This document shows positions 17,262 through 63,706 of a stretch of 64,000 nt of DNA, one piece after another. The DNA is from Phoronis australis (taxonomy: Eukaryota; Animalia; Phoronida): positions 124,001 to 188,000 of the forward strand of contig NMRA01000130.1 in NCBI GenBank assembly GCA_002633005.1, written 5' to 3'. Both the position numbers and the translations under genes were made by a program. Under the pieces are notes generated by a model that did not search any database, was not told the origin of the DNA, and saw only the letters and a program-made list of their open reading frames with translations. Numbering within the stretch: the first letter of the stretch is position 1; each line of letters opens with the position of its first letter.

Positions 17262-18660
17262 CACGGGTGAGAAACAACATGACCGCCGGTCCTCTAAACA
17301 GGACCTCCGGGGATCAAATGGGACCGCCGCACCAGAAAATGGGACTGACGCACCCAAAAACATGACCGCCCCACCACAAAACAGGACCGCCGGGGACTAA
17401 AACCGCAACAACTAACAGGCTAAGATTTATTACCGTTAGGCCTACACAGATCATACAATGGGGCTATATACGTATGCATATGCAGGTCTTGTGCCGATTA
17501 ATCCACCGAAATCTTTTGTGAGCAACAAAGGACACTTCGCTTTGTAATACGCGGCGCTTTTGAGTTTTACTCATCACCAGGCTCCCGGCTGCGGTATGTG
17601 ACTTATAAACAGTTGAAAGGTCAACATTTAATAAATCTAACACAAAACAACCTCGTTGTACGCTTTTGAGCTAAATAATTATAATTTTATCCACTGCATA
17701 AGTTTTAGAACAAAATGAAAATCATTTTCTCCAATTTGACGTTTAAAGTTAGTCAAGTAAAAAAACGGACGTTCTGGTTCTCGGGTGAAGCATCATCATA
17801 CTAGCTGCCTTTGTGCGGCAAAGCTGTACATTAAATGTACAGCTTTGCGCCGATGTGGGTAAAAAACTGAACATGTAAAATCTTTACCCGGCGAATTTTT
17901 TTTAACGACACTCTTCCTTGAGTAAACTAAATTATTTCATCGGCGCTCGAGAGAAATTGTCGTTCTGTCGTTATTCTGCGTTCTCTTAAGTCGGCTTACA
18001 TTGGCCGGTTCCTTTTCCCCCGATTCTTCAGTCAACTGTCCTTCTACAAGGTTGCGTACCTGGCACAACAAATTATCGAAACTGGTTTCATTTCGTTATA
18101 AGTTTTCAGTACTTTAATACCAGCAAACCGAATTTCATAACAAACCTTGTTGCCGCCAAGTTGTCATCATCTTTCGAAAGATGTCTCAAAATTTTTCTGA
18201 GGAAATGGCGCGTGCACATGTCACTTATTATTACAACAGTTCATTAGATTGTTTTTCACTCAAGCGGTTGCAAACTGCAAGGTGAGTGTTGGTTGACGCC
18301 TAGATTTTGCATGCGCCTGCATCGGTCGCGCGCTCTACTACATGTTGATGTAAGTTCCACGACGAGGTGACGAGCAGAACTACCCGGGCTGTGGGCAATG
18401 TCGGGGATGTAACGGAGCTCAATAACGCAAGGCTGTCAAGCTTTATTTTGGCGATAGTCTTTACACAGCTATCTGACCGGTTACGTCATAACCCGCAGTA
18501 TCACACAAAGGCCTTAACTACTCAGTCCCCGGCGGTCCTGTTTTGTGGTGGGGCGGTCATGTTTTTGGGTGCGTCAGTCCCATTATCTGGTGCGGCGGTC
18601 CCATTTGATCCCCGGAGGTCCTGTTTAGAGGACCGGCGGTCATGTTGTTTCTCACCCGTG
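17262..18660. mobile_element. Young non-autonomous TIR DNA transposon with CAC...GTG ends and 5-bp TSD (Transib-like signature)
   Basis: 137-bp TIRs (17262-17398 and 18524-18660) with one mismatch seen. TGACT duplicated at 17257-17261 and 18661-18665. TIRs contain ~6 units of 21 bp. No intact transposase ORF. Confidence 0.9.
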
Positions 18661-23041: not shown

Positions 23042-23532
23042 CAGGCCTTCATGCAGCGTACGTCCTGGGCGTCCAAATGGACGCCCCAGCACTAATATGG
23101 ACGCCCTGGCAAGGACGCCCAATGTATCATTTGGACGCCCACTGTCAATAGGAACCTTTCAAGTTTGGACACACACATTGTAATGATTACTAGGAAGCCT
23201 CTGAAGGCTCACAGTGGGGGCTCTTTTTCAAAGCAGGAAAAAATATACATTGTATATACAAAGTATATACAATGTTGCTATGCTCACACTTGGTTGATAG
23301 CATTATAAAAGTCTTGGTCTACACCAATTTTTTATTAAAAATGCTCACTACAGAAGGCTGTTTTGTAAACTTAGATGAAAAACCTTGGTCTATGGATTTT
23401 TTTGTAAAAAAAATCTGTGTGTTTGGGGGGATTGCTGGGGATGGGGGGTTACGCGTCGGAATTATGGACGCCCTGGAATATTGGGAACCTCATTTTGGAC
23501 ACCCTATTTTCGAAATCCTGGATGAAGGCCTG
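23042..23532 (+). mobile_element. hAT-type MITE, copy 1
   Basis: TIR CAGGCCTTCAT...ATGAAGGCCTG, perfect 8-bp TSD CCCCGGGG (23034-23041 and 23533-23540), repeated subterminal GGACGCCC motifs. Confidence 0.92.
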
Positions 23533-30117: not shown

Positions 30118-30690
30118 CAGGCCTTTATCAAGGATTTCGAAAATAGGGTGTTCAAAATGGGGTCCCCAATATTTCAGGGCATCCATGGTTCAGATGCATA
30201 ACCCCCCACCCCCAGCAATCCCCCCAAACNGTCCAAAATGGGGTTCCCAATATTCCAGGGCATCCATGATTCTGACGTGTAACCCCCCACACCCAGCAAT
30301 CCCCCCAAACACACAGATTTTTTTACAAAAAATGCATAGATCAAGGTTTTTACATCTAAGTTTACAAAACAGCCTTCTGTAGTGAGCATTTTTACTAAAA
30401 ATAAACTGTAGACCAAGACTTTCCAATGCTATCAACCAAGTGTGAGCATAGCAACATTGTATATACTTTGTATATACATTGTATGGTATGTGTCTTCCTT
30501 ATTTGAAAAAGAGCCACTACTGTGAGTCTTCATATAGGCTTCCTAGTAATCATTACAATGTGTGTGTCCAAACTTGAAAGATTCCTACTGATAGTGGGGT
30601 CCAAATGATACATTGGGCGTTCTTGCCAGGGCGTCCATACTAGTGCTAGGGTCCATATTAGTGCTAGGACGTATGCTGCATAAAGGCCTG
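30118..30690 (-). mobile_element. hAT-type MITE, copy 2 (inverted relative to copy 1)
   Basis: CAGGCCTTTAT...ATAAAGGCCTG, 8-bp TSD AGGTGTGG (30110-30117 and 30691-30698). The body is the reverse complement of 23042-23532. Contains an N at 30230. Confidence 0.92.
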
Positions 30691-37865: not shown

Positions 37866-39894
37866 CGCTGCCGCCATTGGGGTTTAAAAAAATGAGGTCA
37901 GAAATCTTGCAGTGCAGACCAAACAATACCCCTATGAAAAACAAACCTTTCCAGCAGTGTCTAAACTTTTCACCCAAAGCTCATTCTGAATCGGATAAAA
38001 AATCTGAAACTCAGTTTATACAAATTCAACAATTAGAGACACCTTGATAGTTCGTAAACCAAAATATGAAATAAAACATGGTCTACACCTGGGAGTAATA
38101 AACATAAATATTGGTCCTAGGTCTACACAGACAATCTTTGCTGCAAAAGGTTTTTGATATTTTCTTAATTCCATATTCATGCTTTAGCTCCTTGTAGTAT
38201 CCAGAACAAGAAACACTAAACAGGTGATTTGCTGCCCAGTGTTTAGATTATCTTCCTATCTTTTTGAATCATCAAGATAAAAAGCCATGGTCCAGCAGAG
38301 TTACATAAAAACCTGTGACAGATGGTGCATAGCTCCAGGCAGGTATTATTCAGCTTGTTTGCACAGGTACAGTCTATATACAAACAGAGACTGGACCCTG
38401 GGCTATTTGCCAAGGTCCTTGACAAGGAACAAGCCTCGAAATTGAAAGAAACCAGATGAACAGAAACTGGAAATAGTATACTGTGACAGAATTATAACTA
38501 ACATGGAGAGCAAGGATTTTTCAAAAAGAGGGTGAAACTGTAAGGTTTTAGTTCAAACTCGCTTAGCCTTAAAAAAACAAGAAATGAATTATCAAAAAGA
38601 GCAAGGAAATTCTTCATCTCTTTTAGCACCCAAGGACAACTCTCACCCCAGGGGAAAGGTGCATGTGCTCTCTGACGAAGTGGTTTGTTTTGCAGTGAGG
38701 GAACCCCCTCCGAGTGTCTGCCTGGGATGACACTGAGCTAACCTGAAGAGTATTTTTTATTATTTGAGGGGAGTTTCTGGGCCCACTGAGGCCCCCTGGC
38801 TACCTAAAATAAGGCAGAAAACGGGAATGTCATTTTACTAATATTTCTCAACACTAATTTCCACGGAAACTCCAATTCATTAAGAGTGCTGTGAATGGTA
38901 CTGTATTTATTTATTTATTTATTTATTACAATATTTAAAATGAGGGTGGCCTCTTCAGTGACAGCACTGCTTTCCAAGAGGTCCCTAAAACCATAAAACT
39001 TGGACAAGTAATAACACTGCAATTATTTGTAGCAAGGTAGTGGTCTTTGAGAAATCTATTACTTGGCCTGAAATGATGGAGAATCGCAACTGGATACTCC
39101 TTATCTTTTATGAACAAAATGAGAAAATAAAATTTCACTTGTCTTTGGGTCATAGGAACCAATATATCGGTTCCTAGATTGGAGAGACTGCCATAACCCT
39201 GATTCAATCATTTTTCCTACAGACCAAAGCAAATAACGCTTAGTATTTAGCCGACACAAGTGGTATGATACTTGAGTCAGAATGTACTATTATGTAAAAC
39301 CTGAGATTTCAGTTTCATAACGTATCTCACCAATTTCGGACAAAAATTAATTCGCCAAAATTGGTCTTTATCATTTTTTAAAAGCTTCTGATATTGTTTT
39401 GAATGTCCACTATTTCTCAGAAACATTGTCTGAATGATACAGCGCTGATTTGATGCTCTTATTAAAAAAAATGGAAACATAAATTTCACTTGTCGGCGGT
39501 ATGATATATATTATGACCTAAACTGGCAAGATTTGTGGCTTGACTTGGTTATAAACTTGCACACTTTGAATGTAGTGCGTGATTACAAAATATAGTCCTG
39601 TTGTACTTAAGTGACTCAGAAAAAATTCCAGTGCAAAAATAATTCAAGAAAGCCTGAAGTGCGACCTTTTCATGTAACAACAAATAATGTAATAATGTAC
39701 ATATGCTTTCAAATCCAGACAATTGGCATTTAACGTAGCAACCATGCCCACAATCACGCACACATGCAATGTTTGAACTAAGATCCAGAAAAGATTTTGG
39801 AAGAATGCTGACAAAAAATTCAAATATCTCTCTCATTCCATCTTTTTATCATCAAACAAAAAATAACATTCCTACCCAGTGTTCGCATATATTC

Positions 39895-40249
39895 AAACAC
39901 GCCATGAGCCATATTTGAAACGCTACGAGCAATGTTTGAAAAGCTATGAGCCATATTTAAACTCTTGAGCCATGTCTGAACAGCTATGGGCAACGTTTGA
40001 ACGCCTAAAAGCCATCCTTGAAATCTTGCGCCATGTTTGAAAAGCTATGAGCCATATTTAAACTCTTGAGCCATGTCTGAACAGCTATGGGCAACGTTTG
40101 AACGCCTAAAAGCCATCCTTGAAATCTTGCGCCATGTTTGAAAAGCTATGAGCCATATTTAAACTCTTGAGCCACTTCTGAATGGCTAAAAGCCATCCCT
40201 GAAATCTTGCGCCATGTTGGAAAAGCTCAGAGCCATGTTGGAAAAGCTA
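39895..40249. repeat. Minisatellite of 19-21-bp units (GAGCCATRTTTGAAA...) with a 101-bp higher-order period
   Basis: GAGCCATATTTAAACTC recurs at 39948, 40049 and 40150. Confidence 0.93.
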
Positions 40250-43800: not shown

Positions 43801-44213
43801 AGTGGGCAATCAGCTTTTATACAAATTTAATAATTCGTTGTTTACTGAATTAAACTGAAGAGTGTTAAAAATTGAACTACTCTAGACAAAGTTACAGAAA
43901 GCCTTAACATGATCAAAACTTGAATCCCGTGAACATTCGTAAGTTCCTTGAAGTTGAAAGAACTTGACGGTAGGCTACAGGAGCCAGACGAAAAATCCGA
44001 CTAAAACTTCTTATTAAAACTAGAATCTGGGTTTTAACAAGAAACCAGATGAAATAATTATGTGTTTTAAACATGGTGCGTCAGAACATGCAGCCTAACA
44101 AACGACAGCAGCAAGTGAAAATATGATTGAGTTTGACACTGACCCATATTTGAACTTTCATTCGTCCAGGTGCACGGTCGACTCTCATTTCGACCCTCCA
44201 TACTACGACTTAC

Positions 44214-44900
44214 CTCTGTGCTGTTCATAGGTCAACAAAGTTTCTGATAAACTTGCATATGCCAAGAAAATCGAAAAGAAACACAATATATTCCAGCCCA
44301 TTTCCGATCTTTCAAGCTCCCATTTGTTGAAGTGTTTAAAGTCCTATCGAAACGAACACTCCTCAACTACTCAATACTGTCCGAGACGTTTTCTTGTTAT
44401 AGACAATGTCGAAGAAGTGAACTGTTTCTAAATGGGTCAACAATGAATCGTGCTAGAGGTCGACCCCTCTGCCAATCGTGTCAAATCTGCCTCCCGTTCA
44501 GTAACCTAGGACCTTGCTAAATAGCAAGACTTCGCGAGATTACGTGAGATATTGTCGTGCATTTTAAATGAGAACACATGACTTTGACTAGGTTTTAGCT
44601 AGGTCCTAGCGTAGGTCCTAGCGTAAACGGAACGCACGCCTGGTATGTAGGGCCCGAGGTCAATCCCCCTCAAAATGACTTGAGTTCAGATCTATAGGAC
44701 GGCTGATAAGACTACAGCTCTTATAAATAAAGCACTACAACCAGTAAATAAATTCTTTTCAAAAATACGATCTATGAATACGACGGGACTTTGCCCAGGT
44801 TGGCCTCGTTCCCGGCCCGGCGGCGACGCTCGGCCGCGGGGAGTTCCGGCAGTTTTACTTTCCGAACAGTTACCGTGTAGGTTCAGTAGTGTTGACCCGT
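44214..44900 (-). other. Probable first exon of an unidentified large-intron minus-strand gene; may end with ATG-AAC-AGC-ACA-GAG (MNSTE)
   Basis: Consensus donor GAG|gtaagt (acttac at 44208-44213). ATG at 44228-44226 has an in-frame TGA just upstream. The + strand of 1-44 kb appears A/C-rich, as expected for minus-strand intron. The upstream boundary is uncertain. Confidence 0.45.
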
Positions 44901-48397: not shown

Positions 48398-49148
48398 TTT
48401 TTTACTATTTGAGCAAAGGTCATGGTGTCGAAATTGACATCATGCATGCAATTTTAAAAGCAATGAAGGCTGTCACTTGCCAATTCCAGCAGAAATTAGT
48501 TGTATTATGTATTATTATATAATTTGGAAAAATTATAAAGTTATGAATTCATATTTTGGCATTACTAATCCTAGAGCTGCTGCCATGGTAACACAATTGT
48601 AGGTCCTTCTAAAAGCTTATTTGTGAATGTGTGTCATGTCCATCTACACGCAAATTTCTTGTTCAAACTTGTGCCATCTACACGCTTCTCCGATGTCCCG
48701 CTGGAAATTGAGAAAAGTCTCAGCACGTCCTCGTACTAAGTTGCCACAACCACCAGAAACACTGTAACTTGGCATAAACCACAGGAAAACCATGACTTTT
48801 GTCACTAACACAACTTACAGAGAATGGCCAGTGCTGTGATTGGTTGTCACAATTTTAAGTACTATCTTTCAACCAATAAATGCTTGTCACTTGAGATCAG
48901 CTAATTAACATATCGCCGGATGGCGTTTGCGGGCATTTTAATTTGACAGCTGATCAACTGAGGTTGTTTTTGTGTTTTTGATATGAAATTGGTAATTTTT
49001 TAGCACTTTAATGCAGATCTCATCACGATTTGATCCCGAAGTCTACTTTACCGCTTCGTCACTTACGTACATTTTCTGATACTTTGTTTCTTCCCTAAAT
49101 TGAATTCCTATTATTTTTGATAAACAGTTATGTGGAGCGTAAGACCAA

Positions 49149-50235
49149 TTTTTATGCGCCCACATATTTATATGTGGACGCATTATGCCGTCATCTCTGT
49201 CCGTCCGTCCGTCCGGGCGGCGTCCGTCCGGCGTCTGGCGTCCGGCGTCCGCTGCTCTATCTCCAAAACCCTTTGACATACGTTCATGAAATTTGGCACA
49301 TATCTTCCATTCATGAATGGGACGGCATGTGCGAACTTTCGGACGGATCCGACTACCGGTGTGCCCCCTAGTGGCAATTTTAGTTTTTTACGCTTACCTT
49401 TGTATCTTCAAAAGTCCTGAACGGATTTTCATGAAATTTGGTATGTAGGCACCTAGTAGTGAGATGACGCTATCCTGCCGTTTTCGGATGGATTCGACAT
49501 AGTTTGCGCCACCTAGTGGCCATTTTTACTGTTTTCGAGTCTGTATTTTTGCGTCCACCCCTCTATCAACCAAACCGCTCAAAGGATGATTGTGAAAATT
49601 GGCGTGTATGTGCTTACTATAAGGAAGACAGCTGACAATGATTTTCAGACGATTTGGACTACTGTGGCGCCTCCTAGTGGCAGTTTTGTTTTTTTGCGCC
49701 CATGGCTGTATCTCCCAAACCGTTTGCAGGATCTTTACTAAATTTAGCAAGTGTATTTATGTGATGTTGACAACGGACGATGACGACTTTAGGATGATTC
49801 TGATTACCGGTATGCCTCTAGTGGCAATTTTAGTATTTGCCTCTAGTGGCAATTTTAGTATTTTACATTGACCTCTGTATTTTCATAGGTCTTTAGGTGT
49901 ATACTTTGTGTTACTTCGTGACTGTGAAGGAAAAGTTCCAAGTAGAAATTTGTTTCTGGCATTCTAATGCTGTGCTAATCTCGTATGTTGGTAAATTTGT
50001 TTTTAATTCTATGTTTCTGTGGTGCTTTAAGCAACTGGTGTATAGGATGTGCTTGTATTATGAAGATTACTCACATTTTGCCCCTAGCCTATTGAGGAGA
50101 CAATGATCATGCCTTTCCATTTTGCAAAGTATGCCCTCTACTGGCCACTTTATGGTACCAATAAACAACCCTAGAAGGATACCGTATGCGGTGCAATTGT
50201 GGGCGCATTTCTACGCTCCGCGTTGCTCTTGTTTT
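49149..50235 (+). mobile_element. Helentron-associated / DINE-1-like non-autonomous element (HINE) with an internal tandem array
   Basis: T-run, 5' subterminal IR ATGCGCCCACA (49154-49164) forming a hairpin with TGTGGACGCAT, (CCGT)n microsatellite, ~145-160-bp tandem monomers, 3' IR TGTGGGCGCAT (50198-50208), small hairpin 50211-50225, terminal CTCTTGTTTT. No TSD. Confidence 0.88.
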
Positions 50236-50350: not shown

Positions 50351-50566
50351 AGCACTATGTATTTACAGCACTCTGCATTTACAGCACTATGCATTTACAG
50401 CGCTATGCATTTACAGCGCTATGCATTTACAGCGCTATGCATTTACAGCGCTATGCATTTACAGCGCTATGCATTTACAGCGCTATGCATTTACAGCGCT
50501 ATGCATTTGCAGTACTATGCATTTGCAGCACTATGCATTTGCAGCACTATGCATTCGCAGCACTAT
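50351..50566. repeat. 16-bp minisatellite (CAGCGCTATGCATTTA), ~13.5 copies
   Basis: Direct reading. The 16-aa periodicity of the overlapping ORFs (3 x 16 nt) confirms the period. Confidence 0.97.
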
Positions 50567-56537: not shown

Positions 56538-56722
56538 ATTCCAGTGGTTGCTACGTGACTACGTTCGGGGTGCTGTTCAAAGATGATAGATGCGCCAACA
56601 TATTCGAGGCTCTTGTGGGTACCCTACGTGCAGCCAAACGTAAGAAGATCGTGACATACGAGGGGGAGCTACTGCTGCAAGGAGTCCACGATAATGTGGA
56701 AATCAAGTTGTTACAGCAGTGA
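56538..56722 (+). CDS. ABRACL: ABRACL / Costars family protein, last coding exon (DSSGCYVTTFGVLFKDDRCANIFEALVGTLRAAKRKKIVTYEGELLLQGVHDNVEIKLLQQ*)
   Basis: Acceptor tttttcttttccag, phase matches the previous exon. 61+185 = 246 nt = 81 aa plus TGA. Contains the Costars signature FGVLF..D.CAN.FEALVGTL.AAK..K.V.Y.GELLLQGVHD. Confidence 0.97.
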
Positions 56723-58107
56723 TTTGTAGCCTCTAACCCGTCTTTGTAATTTTTTGTAACAATTATCAAGTCCTGAAGGTTGCGCGCTTCCGTAATTTAG
56801 TTAACACAATATTTGAAGCGCCTAAAAGGTTAATTGGGCGCTGACATTTACAAAGTGATTGTATTGCTGCATGGTTAGAATTGTAAGTTAGATAGGAAGC
56901 ATCAGTGACCATCACTGATCTTAACATTGGAAATTGACTTCAGGCAAGTATTGTCGAGTCTGGGAACAAATGTTGCTCTTGATTGTAATGTCTGGAGTTG
57001 AACACAAAAATGCAAGGTACTGTAGTGGTTAGGATGCACAAATTACTCAATAAATTCTTAGAGACTAAATCTTGACAAGGCTAGTGCAAATGTGGGAGAA
57101 GTCTTGCAAAGTCTTCTGCTTTTGGGTTTATGATAGGTTGTAATATGCGCGCAATTTGGAACCAGGTTTTCTCCCCTGGATAATGAGCATCAAACTGGTT
57201 CTCAAAATGCGGGCACTTTATATACCGCTATTGCCCTTTTTAGCAGACTTTTTTCTCCTCATAGATTATCCTTCCTCAGCCTTTGATTTTCTTTTCCCTC
57301 AAATAATTTTAGAAGATTGTGAAATCATAACTACAGTAGCTATTGAGCCCTTTTCCCTGCATTTGGTTTGTTGTCTTGTGAAAAAAGTGCATAGTTATAA
57401 GCAATTTGAACGTCTTCATAAAATCACATTTAGCATGGTAACATGTTAATTACCATCTTGTCACGTTCTCCATCGGTTTGTGAATGATACGATTACCTTT
57501 ACTAAGAAAGTTTTTCTTAAAGGTAGTAATTTGCAACACAGGTCAAATAATTGGTGTCTCACCTGCCTTCAGACGTATTACAGGTAAAAATGGCTTCGAT
57601 CTACAAATTTTTGCGTATGTGATCTTGATATCACCAAAGATTTTTCAACATTTTCAGTTATCGTTTCTGGTAACTGTACACAAATATATTTTGGATTGAG
57701 CAAAGTTCATAAATGGCCTCTGTGGTTAGATATTTAGGTCAGTGTTGAGAATCATCTGACCTTGTTGCTGAGTGGCTTAACTGTGACCTATGTTGCTGGA
57801 GGGGTTGTCTCCTTGGACCACAAACGTAGTACTCAAATAGTGTGAATGCGTTTGATAGGAATGCAACACCTGTGTAGTGGACCAATTACTGTTAAGTTAT
57901 GAATTCTATTGGTGCTGGTGAGGAGTCCATGTGCAATGTTTTTGTAACTTTGTGATAGACATCTTTCACTTTTTTAGGCATAACTTTATTTTGGATTTTC
58001 GCTATGACTCTTACCTGTTCGGAAGGCTGTGTAATGTTTATTAAAACTATATTTAGTTAGATTCATTTTAGAATTATTGTATATAAGCTGCTGAATTTTT
58101 TAAAATG

Positions 58108-58113
58108 AATAAA
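58108..58113 (+). terminator. Candidate ABRACL polyadenylation signal (AATAAA); a proximal alternative is at 57049-57054
   Basis: AATAAA followed by GT-rich (tgtgtctgtt) and T-rich tracts, ~1.4 kb after the stop. Confidence 0.55.
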
Positions 58114-58923
58114 TGGTCAGTTTGCATTAGTGTGTCTGTTCACTGCAGAATTTTTTTTTTCTTAATTTTGCTTTTTGGGAAATCGAATTAAAGTTATCCA
58201 TTATGGGATTACTGATCCATTTAATAGTTCCCTGCTTTGAAACTCACTGAAAAACATCTTTACAGGCTGGTACCAACTCTGAACAGGTTGTTGAACTTTT
58301 CTGTAAGAATTGCCAATCTACCAGTATTACATGCATGACGTTTTGGGCACCGTATTCAAAATGAAGGGAAAGCTTTCGTTGATAAATGTGTGAATTGTGA
58401 GGCTGCTTGGCTTAAGGGGGGGGGGGGAAGTATCCTTCAGAATCGATACGTCCCTGGTTATTTTGCAGAGACATTTTCTAGTAATAACTACTTTTCCTAC
58501 AGGTGGTAGTTATACATGTAAGGACTCAGGATTGCATAAATGGCACAGTAAATGGTTCTGCTTTAACCTCCATTAACACAAATAGGCGACACATAGTGTG
58601 TTGAATAGTGAACAGGATATTGCCTTTGCTCAATGGAATTCAGAATCATGATGCAGGCCTTTTGCTTAGTGGAAGTCACTTTTTATTGCTTCTAGGAATG
58701 TGAATACATGCCAAGTCGACAACATCTGTTGAAGATTTCCAAGGATGCAACCACATTTACGTACGTGTGTGCATATTGCCGTCATCTCTGTCTGGGTGTC
58801 TCGCGTCTAGTGCTGTATCGCGTCAATCCCTTGCAGGATCCTAATGAGATTCAGCTGACGACAAATAATGATGAATTTCGGACCGATCTGATTATCGCCG
58901 TGTCCCCTAGTGGCAATTTTAGC

Positions 58924-60762
58924 TTTTTATGCGCCCACATATTTATATGTGAACGCATTATGCCGTCATCTCCGGGTGGCGTCAGTCCGGCGTCCGCTGC
59001 TCTATCTCCAAAACCCTTTGACATACGTTCATAAAATTTGGCACATATGTTCCATTCATGAATGGGACGGCATGAGCGAACTTTCGGACGGATCCGACTA
59101 CCGGTGTGCCCCCTAGCGGCAATTTTAGTTTTTTACGCTTACATTTGTATCTTCAAAAGTCCTGAACGGATTTTCATGAAATTTGGTATGTAGGCACCTA
59201 TTAGTGAGATGACGCTATGCTCCCGTTTTCGGATGGATTCGACGTAATTTGCGCCACCTAGTGGCCGTTTTTACTGTTTTCGAGTTTTTGCGTCCACCAC
59301 CCTATCAACCAAACCGCTCAAAGGATGATTGTGAAAATAAGCATGTATGTGCTTACTATGAAGAGGACGGTTGACGATGATTTTCAGACGATTTCGACTA
59401 CTGTGGCGCCTCCTAGGTATCTCCTAAACCGTTCGCAAGATCTTTACGAAATTTATTTAGTATATTTGTGTGTTGTTAACAACGGACGACGACGACTTTT
59501 GGACAGATCCGACTACCGGTGAGCTCCCTAGTGGCAGTTTTGTTTTTTGCGCCTATGGCTGTATCTCCTAAACCGTTCGCAGGATTTTTACGAAAGTAAA
59601 TAAGTATATTTATATGATGTCAACAACGAACGGCAATGACTTTTGGACAGATCTGACTACCGGTGTGCCCCTTAGTGGCAATTTTATTTTTTTTACGTTT
59701 ACCTTTGTATCTTCAAAAGTCCTGAACGGATTTTCATGAAATTTATTATGTAGGCACCTATTAGTGCGGTGACGCTATCCTCCTGTTTTTGATTGGATTC
59801 GATGTAGTTTGCGCCACCTAGTGGCCATTTTTACTGTTTTCTGGTCTGTTTTTTGCGTCCACCCCTCTATCAACCAAACCCGGCACTCAAAGGATGATTG
59901 TGGAAATTGGCATGTATGTGCTTACTATAAAGAGGACATTGACGATGATTTTCCGACGATTTCGAGTACTGTGGCGCCTCCTAGTGGCAGTTTTGTTTTT
60001 GTTGCGCCTATTGTATCTCCTAAACCGTTCGCAGGATCTTTACTTGATTTAGCAAGTGTATTTATATGATGTTGACTACGGATGACGACGACTTTCGTAC
60101 AGATCTGACTACTGCTGTGTTCCCTAGTGGCAATTTTAGTTTTTTACGTTTAACTCAGTATCTTCAAAGGTCCTCAACAGATTTTCATAAGATTTTAAAT
60201 ATAGGCATCTATTGGTGTGATGACACTATCTTTCTGTTTTTGGATGGAATCGAGGTATTTTGCACCACCTAGTGGCCATTTTTGCTGTTGTTTTTGGTGT
60301 CCACCCCTGTATCAACCAAATCATTTGAAAATTGACATATATGTTCTCAGTGTGAAGACGACCTTTGATGATGGTGACTGACTACTGTGGTGCCTCCTAG
60401 TGGTAATTTTGGTTTGCGCCCATAGTTGTATCTCTTAAACCCACTGCAGGATCTTTACTAAATTGAGTAAGTGTATTTATGTCACATAAATATGAAGATA
60501 ACAACAGACGACGACGACTTTCAGGCGGATCCAACAGACATTGTGCCCACTAGTGGCAATTTCATTTTATTCTGTTTTCCTTTCTTTTTCTGAAGTTCCT
60601 TGACAGATTTTTATGAAATATGGCATGTTCCTGTTTTTGGATGGATTGTATGTTTTTGCGCCATCTAGTGGCCATTTTTACGATACAAATAAATAACCCT
60701 TAAAAGCACACCATTTGCAATGCATTCGTAGGCACATTTCAACGCTCCACGTTGCTCTTGTT
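58924..60762 (+). mobile_element. HINE, young copy with an expanded array (~12 monomers), nested in an older copy
   Basis: Same 5' end TTTTTATGCGCCCACATATTTATATGT. The first ~450 bp are nearly identical to 49240-49680. 3' end CGTAGGCACAT plus CAACG/CGTTG hairpin plus CTCTTGTT. Confidence 0.88.
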
Positions 60763-61675
60763 ATGCCTCTGTATCTTTTAAGAATTCCTGGATGGATTTT
60801 CATAAAAATCCAAAAATACATATAAAAAGACAATGCCTCGTCTTTTACAGACGGGTTTAATCTATTCTGTGCCACATGGTGGCCATTTTTATAAGTTAAA
60901 AGTCCTTGGCACCTCTAATTGCCAAACCGCTCGAAGAATCACGAAAATTAGTATGTGTTCCTACTGAGAAAACCATGGCTGATATCAATCACGAGATGAT
61001 TATTATTATGTGGTGTCTCCTGGTGTCAATTTTGTTATTTTTTCATAGGCTTCTCTATTTCTTTAATTATTTACAACAGCTCTGAAATTTGACTAATGTT
61101 TCCCTATGAATGTGGTAATGGGTGACCATGGTTTTTCAACGGATCTGATAACTGCTGTCCCCGATTATAGTTTTCCGTTTCCAACATTTGCCTCATCTTC
61201 AGCCTAGTTTCAGAAAAAAAAAATTCCAGTCTGTTGTTCCTCTCTATCGTTCAAGCCACTCAGTCATGAAAATTGGTAACTTTGATCCTACTGACAAGAG
61301 CATGACTGATGTCGCTCTTCAGGTGGGTCTGACTAGTGTGGTACATCCTAGTGGCACGTTTTGGCATCTGTGACTGTAACGCCTGGTCTTTGTAAAATTT
61401 GGTAAGTATGTTCCTATGAACTTGAAAGCAGATGTGGATTTCTTTTGGACGGACTAACAATGTGCCACCTTGTGGCAATTTAATTTTACATTTGCCTCTC
61501 TATCTTTGGGGTTGCTTGACAGATTTTCATGAAAGTTGGCAGATAGTCTTCTATGAGTGATGATACTTTCCCATTTTCGGAGGAGTACAATGTATTCTGC
61601 AGTCTAGCTGCCTATTATATAAAAGCATGAAAGTTTTGAGACATCCAGCTGAGGAAAGAAAATGCAGAAAAACTA

Positions 61676-61812
61676 AATCAAATACCTGAATTTGCTTAAT
61701 TGAGTTAGTGACGTTGCGTCCGTCTCTCATGGACTTCATCTAGCCAAGCTGAAATCCGTGAGAGATGGACACAATATCACTAACTGGGGTAAGCAAATTC
61801 CAGTATTGGATT
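61676..61812. repeat. Imperfect foldback (~63-bp arms, ~11-bp loop), probable small MITE inside the old HINE
   Basis: Arms 61676-61738 and 61750-61812. The two opposite ORFs MRDGRNVTN... and MRDGHNITN... mirror each other. Confidence 0.8.
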
Positions 61813-62104
61813 CTATATTTCTTTATTCTGCCTATTATATCACACTAACAGACACCTCTAGAAGCATGCTGTTTGTAGTTCAATCATGGGCGCATTTCAA
61901 TGTGCTGTTGCTCCTGTTACTAAAGGTAACAACAAACACGGGTTTAGTTTCCTTTAAAGGCATTCTCCCATAGCTGACACGGAAAATAATTTATGTGTTC
62001 GAAAATTCTAATGACTTGTGGGAAGAGAGCAGTTCATGATTACTTTTAAGTTGATGTAGACACTGGAAAACAACAACTCAAAACAACAATTAAATACATC
62101 AAAT

Positions 62105-63043: not shown

Positions 63044-63139
63044 CTAAAGCTCGTCTCGAAGGTTTTGTTGCCGATATTTTTTGGCGAAGTAAATGATCTC
63101 ATCGGCATCCGTCTCGAGCGAGCTCCACTGATAAAACTC
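63044..63139 (-). CDS. Terminal exon of a probable ER-luminal protein (EFYQWSSLETDADEIIYFAKKYRQQNLRDEL*)
   Basis: Minus-strand acceptor atctttctttacag at 63140, a CpG-rich coding-like island, and a phase-0 frame ending RDEL then TAG. The remainder of the gene was not located in the window. Confidence 0.75.
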   Translation of the reverse strand, partial: EFYQWSSLETDADEIIYFAKKYRQQNLRDEL

Positions 63140-63558: not shown

Positions 63559-63706
63559 CAGGAGAAAGTTGAAAATGAAAATATTTCGGTTTATTGGCCT
63601 AAAACCATCATCAGGAAGCAACATTGACAATTTGGATCATGAATCGCTTCCTGATGATGGTTTTATGCCAATAAATCGAAATGTTTTCATTTTCAACTTT
63701 CTCCTG
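63559..63706. repeat. Foldback (~61-bp arms, ~26-bp loop) with a CTGATGA...CGAAA motif in each arm; possible Penelope-like terminal fragment
   Basis: 63559-63619 is the near reverse complement of 63646-63706. Confidence 0.85.

Follow-up and report, generated by a model that had tools for sequence, protein, structure and literature searches.

A nested pair of Helentron-type transposons in Phoronis australis carries a periodic array of constrained CTCF-like sites

A stretch of 64,000 nucleotides from the phoronid Phoronis australis (GenBank assembly GCA_002633005.1, contig NMRA01000130.1, positions 124,001 to 188,000 of the forward strand; hereafter, the window) contains, at 58745..61918, a mobile element with a periodic series of sequences that resemble binding sites of the CTCF protein. 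The original prediction, which was made from the sequence alone, took this locus for a rolling-circle-type element with about 16 co-oriented motifs and proposed that it could be a mobile insulator cassette. The question that the locus raises is what keeps such an array: the host, the element itself, or nothing beyond common descent. The locus consists of two nested copies of a non-autonomous Helentron (HINE), the CTCF-like site is the best-kept block of the repeat unit, and selection acting on the transposon is a plausible reason for its retention.

For the position weight matrix scan, we used a CTCF count matrix approximating JASPAR MA0139.1, with a main cut-off of 12.5 bits. Between 58745 and 61921, there are 15 matches at or above this cut-off, all on the minus strand, compared to a mean of 0.075 and a maximum of 1 in 200 dinucleotide shuffles; a pattern that does not depend on the matrix matches 18 times in the window, where 0.16 matches are expected, 3 of the 18 being in a further copy of the element (copy A, see below). 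A profile built from the spacer only, together with the motif scan, delineates 19 monomers of about 145 bp in the nested copies, and 15 of these match the CTCF core motif at 12.5–25.9 bits under this approximate vertebrate matrix. Sites of at least 12.5 bits are found in 11 of the 12 monomers of the inner copy, the remaining site being half deleted, and in 4 of the 7 monomers of the outer copy, where one more site is weak and two are lost. All 16 positions listed in the original prediction carry the motif in one orientation, and 14 of them reach the cut-off; the site listed at 61341 is weak (9.1 bits), and the one at 59406, described as truncated, is indeed cut by a deletion (4.2 bits). The list omitted one site, at 61011 (14.6 bits), and two site-less monomers (around 61155 and 61595), whereas the spacing of 115–163 bp within the inner copy was reproduced. 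The sites are located as follows.

58898..58916, minus strand: CTCF-like site of outer monomer 1 (19.8 bits)
59104..60674, minus strand: twelve inner sites, 11 of which score 12.6–25.9 bits
59104, 59249, 59404 (half deleted), 59519, 59663 and 59809, minus strand: starts of the first six inner sites
59972, 60115, 60260, 60388, 60541 and 60656, minus strand: starts of the other six inner sites
60867..61613, minus strand: six further outer sites, at 60867 (17.5 bits), 61011 (14.6 bits), about 61155 (lost), 61339 (9.1 bits), 61460 (18.6 bits) and 61595 (lost)

The upstream module of vertebrate-type CTCF sites is absent from all 8 sites inspected, and an A-rich run occupies its place. Invertebrate-type CTCF sites likewise lack the upstream module (10.64898/2026.10.19.759930), and we therefore do not count its absence against an invertebrate site.

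The interval 58745..61918 comprises two nested HINE copies, and a third copy, not mentioned in the original prediction, is located upstream. Their parts are:

58745..61918, plus strand: outer, older HINE copy with 7 monomers in the order d, (inner insertion), b, c, a/d, c, d, b
58924..60761, plus strand: inner, younger HINE copy, whose monomers run a b c d d b c d b c d b
58929..58958, plus strand: 5' subterminal inverted repeat of the inner copy with a nested inverted repeat (hairpin), followed by a short GTCC/CGTC microsatellite
60728..60761, plus strand: degenerate 3' subterminal repeat of the inner copy, a stem-loop of 5 bp at 60740-60754 (folding z-score −1.9) and the terminus
61886..61918, plus strand: 3' subterminal repeat and terminus of the outer copy
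49148..50233, plus strand: copy A, a full-length member apart from the nested pair, with T-rich ends and 11-bp subterminal inverted repeats that match perfectly (49154-49164 / 50198-50208)

We compared these copies with the feature set given for HINEs (PMC4067079). The subterminal inverted repeats, for which the set requires at least 11 bp, are perfect over 11 bp in copy A and degenerate in the inner and outer copies. The 5' inverted repeat is nested with the subterminal one and followed by the GTCC/CGTC run, and the copy A version of this hairpin folds with a z-score of −4.8. A weak 3' stem-loop with stems of 4–5 bp occurs in copy A (z −0.75) and the inner copy (z −1.87) but has no counterpart in the outer copy. 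In two of the three copies, T runs border both ends and no flank is duplicated, the old outer copy being the exception, and the family is dispersed and high-copy, with central tandem repeats. Judged by frame length, the copies are non-coding, with no stop-to-stop frame longer than 114 codons. Contig depth jumps sharply at both ends of copy A, where the loose flanks are diverse; genome-wide, the loose flanks of the element are T/A-rich and diverse, and no true empty allele was seen for element insertions. The ends, the hairpin, the microsatellite and the central repeats support the predicted rolling-circle (HINE-type) anatomy.

The inner copy is inserted in the T run directly behind the first motif of the outer copy, with no duplicated flank, and the sequences on either side of the insertion join into one monomer that is 73% similar to a young monomer. 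The 5' and 3' ends of the outer copy are each 73% similar to those of the inner copy and have no clear T runs; the outer 5' end is also present on a second haplotype (run X2), which differs at 27 of 1007 bases over 57788-58794. The inner copy is 97% identical to copy A at the 5' end and 75% at the 3' end, and the divergence of its monomers rises toward the 3' end; given this young-like 5' part, diverged 3' part and age gradient, the copies of this family are probably chimeric, combining young and old segments. Four monomer subtypes (a, b, c and d) can be told apart, and they form a d-b-c trimer about 451 bp long. This 451-bp step is also seen in further copies across the genome: the joint 49785 to 49335 is present in 147 RNA reads and, for three runs of a single sample, in 12, 8 and 9 contigs. 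The element's 5' end also lies right behind a motif in other copies (joint 49521 to 49148). Copy A carries sites at 49359, 49504 and 49665 (23.6–25.9 bits) and at 50129 (19.1 bits), along with a damaged site at 49809 that is accompanied by a local 25-bp duplication. The 3' part of the outer copy includes an inverted repeat of 81 nt at 75% (61661-61741 / 61747-61827), probably a small insertion of a miniature inverted-repeat transposable element (MITE).

Is the motif better kept than the rest of the monomer? In an alignment of 22 monomers, no 8-mer is better kept than the core CTAGTGGC (0.93 against a column mean of 0.63), and the block ATGAAATT comes second (0.81). The core value, taken alone, is biased because these monomers were located via the motif. 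The spacer-only profile, however, also recovers the monomers, including those that lost the site. The subtypes are only about 45–72% alike, yet the site is their best-kept block: with one representative for each of a–d, 7 of the 9 high-information motif positions are invariant versus 33 of the 127 positions outside the motif, where the last 30 columns are poorly aligned. Across all 7 outer monomers, those without a site included, the counts are 49 of 63 for the motif versus 416 of 842 outside it, and 4 of the 7 outer sites still score at least 12.5 bits, compared to the 13–21% expected under neutral decay at 30–35% divergence (P 0.007–0.04). The substitutions that did occur are mild: they cost −0.5 bits in the 9 motif-keeping sites versus −3.2 for random ones, and when the two lost sites are added, −2.2 versus −3.5 ± 0.4 (P 0.001). 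Within core positions 3–17, conservation is lowest at positions 12 and 16, where the matrix permits two letters, and none of 2000 column-permuted matrices fits as well (19.2 against a maximum of 8.0). The prediction that the core is better preserved than the spacer thus holds in the motif-versus-spacer comparison across monomers.

The ratio of summed contig depth to single-copy depth is 13,000–34,000 at the element ends and 34,000–65,000 per motif bin; such a ratio is no true copy number, and, taken as an order of magnitude only, it suggests that the genome holds about 10^4 copies of the element and up to about 10^5 sites. Read depth is high in the motif bins but likewise in the neighbouring bins and was not used as evidence. 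Decay after insertion is visible in the outer copy as CpG loss, with an observed-to-expected CpG ratio of 0.47 versus 0.98–1.05 in young copies.

The orientation of the sites relative to host transcripts was assessed with raw RNA reads from three stranded runs of one study, where an exon of the neighbouring gene ABRACL is read only with the first mate on the minus strand. Among the reads from all copies of the element genome-wide (mapped to 49148-50233 and 58924-59300), sense exceeds antisense by a factor of 16–37 in one mapping and 26–193 in another; in each run, 609–933 reads enter across the element's 5' edge out of varied flanking sequence, with no accumulation of read starts listed at the element. 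The sense excess and the entry from diverse flanks indicate that transcribed copies are nearly all co-oriented with the host transcript, so that the CTCF-like site in nearly all of them points upstream, against host transcription. Within the window, T runs are only 1.3–3 times more common on sense strands, and target choice alone therefore seems too weak to produce this bias; early cleavage or loss of antisense copies could contribute. On the minus strand, AATAAA occurs 4 times in the inner copy and not at all in copy A.

The explanation that we favour, with about as much belief as doubt, is that selection on the transposon keeps the CTCF-like site, which would be bound by CTCF or a similar zinc-finger protein, the copies being kept accessible. 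Under this scenario, the bound protein would hold copies open and unsilenced, a state that would favour the element's own copying, with mobilisation in trans presumably provided by the RepHel of an autonomous Helentron. Arrays would grow and mix as copies insert into T runs, among them the one behind the motif, and recombine with each other. Selection would stem mainly from the benefit to the transposon rather than to the host. After insertion, most copies would decay, and any influence on genes nearby, for example by opening chromatin locally or by holding back silencing, would be incidental, maybe kept by the host at some loci. A nucleosome occupies 147 bp, so that the 145-bp spacing would leave no room for one at full occupancy and a bound array would form an open patch rather than a point boundary. 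A bolder proposition can be made from the same sequence features, namely, that the satellite of this rolling-circle family is a self-expanding array of true CTCF sites, some 10^5 of which would have been seeded, nearly all against host transcription in transcribed copies, and that it would be the genome's main source of CTCF occupancy and barriers, a self-shield from silencing that shapes domains; we find this doubtful.

Several observations weigh against the retention of the site for CTCF binding. Protection within subtypes is modest, with changes at 25 of the 159 high-information positions (15.7%) versus 365 of the 1461 non-CpG spacer positions (25.0%; P 0.008, the rows not being independent), and within subtypes, high- and low-information motif positions behave alike (P 0.40). 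The correlation between conservation and information content is limited (rho 0.55 for 21 sites, P 0.015; rho 0.41 for 9 sites, P 0.08), in subtype d, the right half of the site is often eroded and GCCACTAG retained, and the matrix only approximates a vertebrate one. Finally, copies differ from each other most often by C>T and G>A, and together with the CpG loss in the old copy, this makes it likely that copies are methylated in the long run. Most of the constraint signal is thus old and resides between subtypes, as would be expected if selection had acted on elements that went on copying.

An alternative that places the selection on the same element but dispenses with CTCF is that the element's own machinery reads the conserved block, for example, as a RepHel docking site, a nicking or stop site, or a single-strand hairpin, the likeness to CTCF sites being incidental. 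The core contains CTAG, the canonical 3' end of Helitrons, nested insertions land just behind the core, one deletion breaks directly after CTAG at 59416, and in subtype d, GCCACTAG is steadier than the GGC half; but the element's true 3' ends do not end in CTAG, oyster HINE arrays are nearly devoid of the core, and the match extends over at least 15 positions with an apparently CTCF-like tolerance. As for folding, subtype b forms a hairpin (z −3.2), whereas changes at position 12 are not compensated at position 6, with which it would have to pair. The hairpin reading of the motif was rejected for three of the four subtypes (a, c and d), which fold no better than shuffles (z −0.04, 0.17 and −0.70, respectively). 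Altogether, we consider a machinery signal unlikely. Still less probable, in our estimate, is that the site was captured once in a founder monomer and has been carried along neutrally, the apparent conservation stemming from ascertainment or gene conversion. The monomers were indeed first located by the motif, protection within subtypes is modest, the site is lost or weakened in 4 of the 19 monomers, and the copies are related so that counts are not independent; nevertheless, the spacer-only profile finds the monomers, the lost ones among them, and the motif excess persists, and subtypes that are only 45–72% alike still keep the site.

The original proposal of an insulator serving the host, with CTCF-bound arrays that would block enhancers or separate domains and sites kept by host selection, falls between these two in probability, and we regard it as improbable. 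It would fit with the location of the array outside the ABRACL transcript and between convergent genes, with the old outer copy, common to another haplotype, retaining 4 of its 7 sites, with the enrichment of CTCF motifs at domain boundaries of echinoderms (PMC13317027) and amphioxus (10.1101/2022.01.04.475009), and with the DXZ4 macrosatellite, which retains only its CTCF motif (PMC3491370). The shared orientation of the sites is automatic in a tandem array, and a fixed repeat orientation is stated for oyster HINEs as well (PMC7492417). With about 10^4 copies, many of them within transcripts, and with sites that decay after insertion (3 of the 7 outer monomers are below 12.5 bits), the copies appear too many and too decayed to be individually selected. 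Furthermore, invertebrate CTCF restores neither loops nor insulation (10.64898/2026.10.19.760054, 10.64898/2026.10.19.759930), the orthologues having failed to rescue either in human cells (10.64898/2026.10.19.760054); motif orientation is without signal in protostomes and echinoderms (10.64898/2026.10.19.760054; PMC13317027); and annelid CTCF motifs are mostly single and located at promoters (PMC7854359). The part of the original prediction that assigned the array an insulator role for the host is thus not supported so far, and selection on the transposon remains the reading that we prefer.

The neighbourhood of the array was described in the original prediction as a gap between the convergent 3' ends of ABRACL and a gene whose product ends in RDEL. 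The relevant exons are:

56539..58145, plus strand: last exon and 3' untranslated region of ABRACL, with the element outside it
63044..63139, minus strand: last coding exon of the gene ending in RDEL

The identity of ABRACL was confirmed by its Costars domain (E 9e-22), and the gene is 75–90% identical to homologues from plants to fish. Its RNA falls off near 58025-58145, about 0.6–0.7 kb before the element, and depth is near zero in between, which places the array outside the ABRACL transcript. On the other side, the RDEL exon is present, but a homology search with it retrieved no homologue. Among 83 of the 762 open frames of the window (83 of the 106 passing the splice filter), the Pfam search detected only Costars above the cut-off. 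Outside the elements, CTCF-like matches at 10 bits number 16, compared to a mean of 4.1 and a maximum of 8 in 40 shuffles, with two sites counted on both strands; this lends weak support to the window coming from a CTCF-using genome. Single CTCF-like sites outside the HINE copies are located at 2417, 4224, 4817, 8908, 17110 and 35462, the one at 2417 scoring 23.8 bits and matching on both strands.

Other features of the window include a short, high-copy, palindromic (MITE-like) piece within the ABRACL 3' untranslated region (57166-57223), across which reads switch strand, and a 61-nt inverted repeat at 95% (63559-63619 / 63646-63706), probably another small MITE insertion. On the minus strand, 44213-44300 is likely a first exon encoding a signal peptide, possibly followed by a very long first intron; an exon hunt across 1-44 kb found no further coding exon behind it. 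There are also a 137-bp inverted pair at 99% (17262-17398 / 18524-18660), a 467-bp inverted dispersed repeat (23042-23500 / 30231-30690), a minisatellite with periods of 21, 40 and 101 bp (39889-40236) and a 16-bp minisatellite just behind copy A (50351-50566).

How widespread are such arrays? The core 8-mer occurs only 3 times, on both strands taken together, in the 3.37 million characters of the oyster HINE supplement (PMC7492417), and the motif strings are absent from 10 supplementary files of PMC4067079. Neither the at least 118 metagenome loci retrieved with a three-core pattern nor the 132 viral loci retrieved with a two-core pattern have a blastn match to the element at E 0.01, and no periodic CTCF array is present among the 118 metagenome matches listed. 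With oyster arrays nearly lacking the core and no relative among these metagenomic and viral loci, the CTCF-like array is not a general property of HINEs. One metagenome locus (L077:1325-2271), dissimilar to the element, contains 18 core 8-mers and 7 CTCF-like matches, irregularly spaced and on both strands, and cluster CL7 in file 2 of the PMC7492417 supplement includes two oyster arrays of about 180 bp with a CATCAGATGGC / CATCAGAGGGC stretch that bears some likeness to the CTCF core.

CTCF is reportedly found in bilaterians, whereas cnidarians, ctenophores, sponges, flatworms and some nematodes are described as having none (PMC7021899, PMC10658182), and 62,987 CTCF motifs have been counted in amphioxus (10.1101/2022.01.04.475009). 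Thousands of arrays placed at new loci, in subfamilies with strong, weak or broken sites, amount to a natural experiment with which to ask if CTCF in invertebrates acts by opening chromatin, by preventing silencing or as an insulator. If the favoured reading is true, the conserved boxes of HINE satellites would gain a concrete function for the first time. A caution for CTCF motif scans in such genomes is that a single repeat may dominate them.

HINE arrays, single CTCF sites carried by transposons and CTCF tandem repeats are each known separately; what appears to be new is their combination, given that a literature search, which left most subscription papers outside its reach, found no report of CTCF motif arrays inside HINE or Helitron repeats. 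Of earlier publications, that of Shi et al. (2023, Cell Rep 42:112151) could most readily reduce the novelty of Helitron-borne CTCF arrays; it reportedly concerns Helitron-marked supersized loops in Xenopus tropicalis sperm and so links Helitrons to anchors of 3D genome structure.

Among known systems, the closest in architecture are the HINE/DINE-1 elements, including oyster Cg_HINE, Pearl, DTC84 and MgE, which share with the Phoronis element the subterminal inverted repeats, 5' inverted repeat and microsatellite, as well as central 140–180 bp repeats in fixed orientation, the T-rich target and the lack of target duplication (PMC4067079, PMC7492417); they also have a 3' stem-loop, a feature that is weak in the Phoronis copies. 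The word CTCF appears in neither of these two papers, and the Phoronis element differs from known HINEs in its d-b-c trimer of about 451 bp with a CTCF-like site as the common block. With respect to the motif, zebrafish non-autonomous DNA transposons such as TDR13B (PMC7182764) and the lamprey hAT-Tip100 family (PMC5504073) likewise spread CTCF motifs genome-wide, as do mammalian SINEs (short interspersed elements), as cited in both papers. No Helitron-named family is among the 40 of the zebrafish Table S3 (PMC7182764), and internal periodic arrays are not described for these families in the available parts of the two papers, in contrast to the up to 12 sites per copy of the Phoronis element. 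The vertebrate transposon-borne sites are supported by chromatin immunoprecipitation, whereas those of Phoronis are predicted from sequence.

Two further systems resemble the Phoronis arrays in one respect each. The C. elegans Helitron-minisatellite PATC barriers are also Helitron internal repeats that act as chromatin barriers, but they do so through DNA mechanics rather than a protein motif, with a 35-bp unit, in a species without CTCF (10.64898/2026.08.08.743475). The DXZ4/Dxz4 macrosatellite is also a tandem repeat conserved only at the CTCF motif; it is, however, one mammalian locus at which binding is shown (PMC3491370), whereas the Phoronis family is mobile and high-copy.

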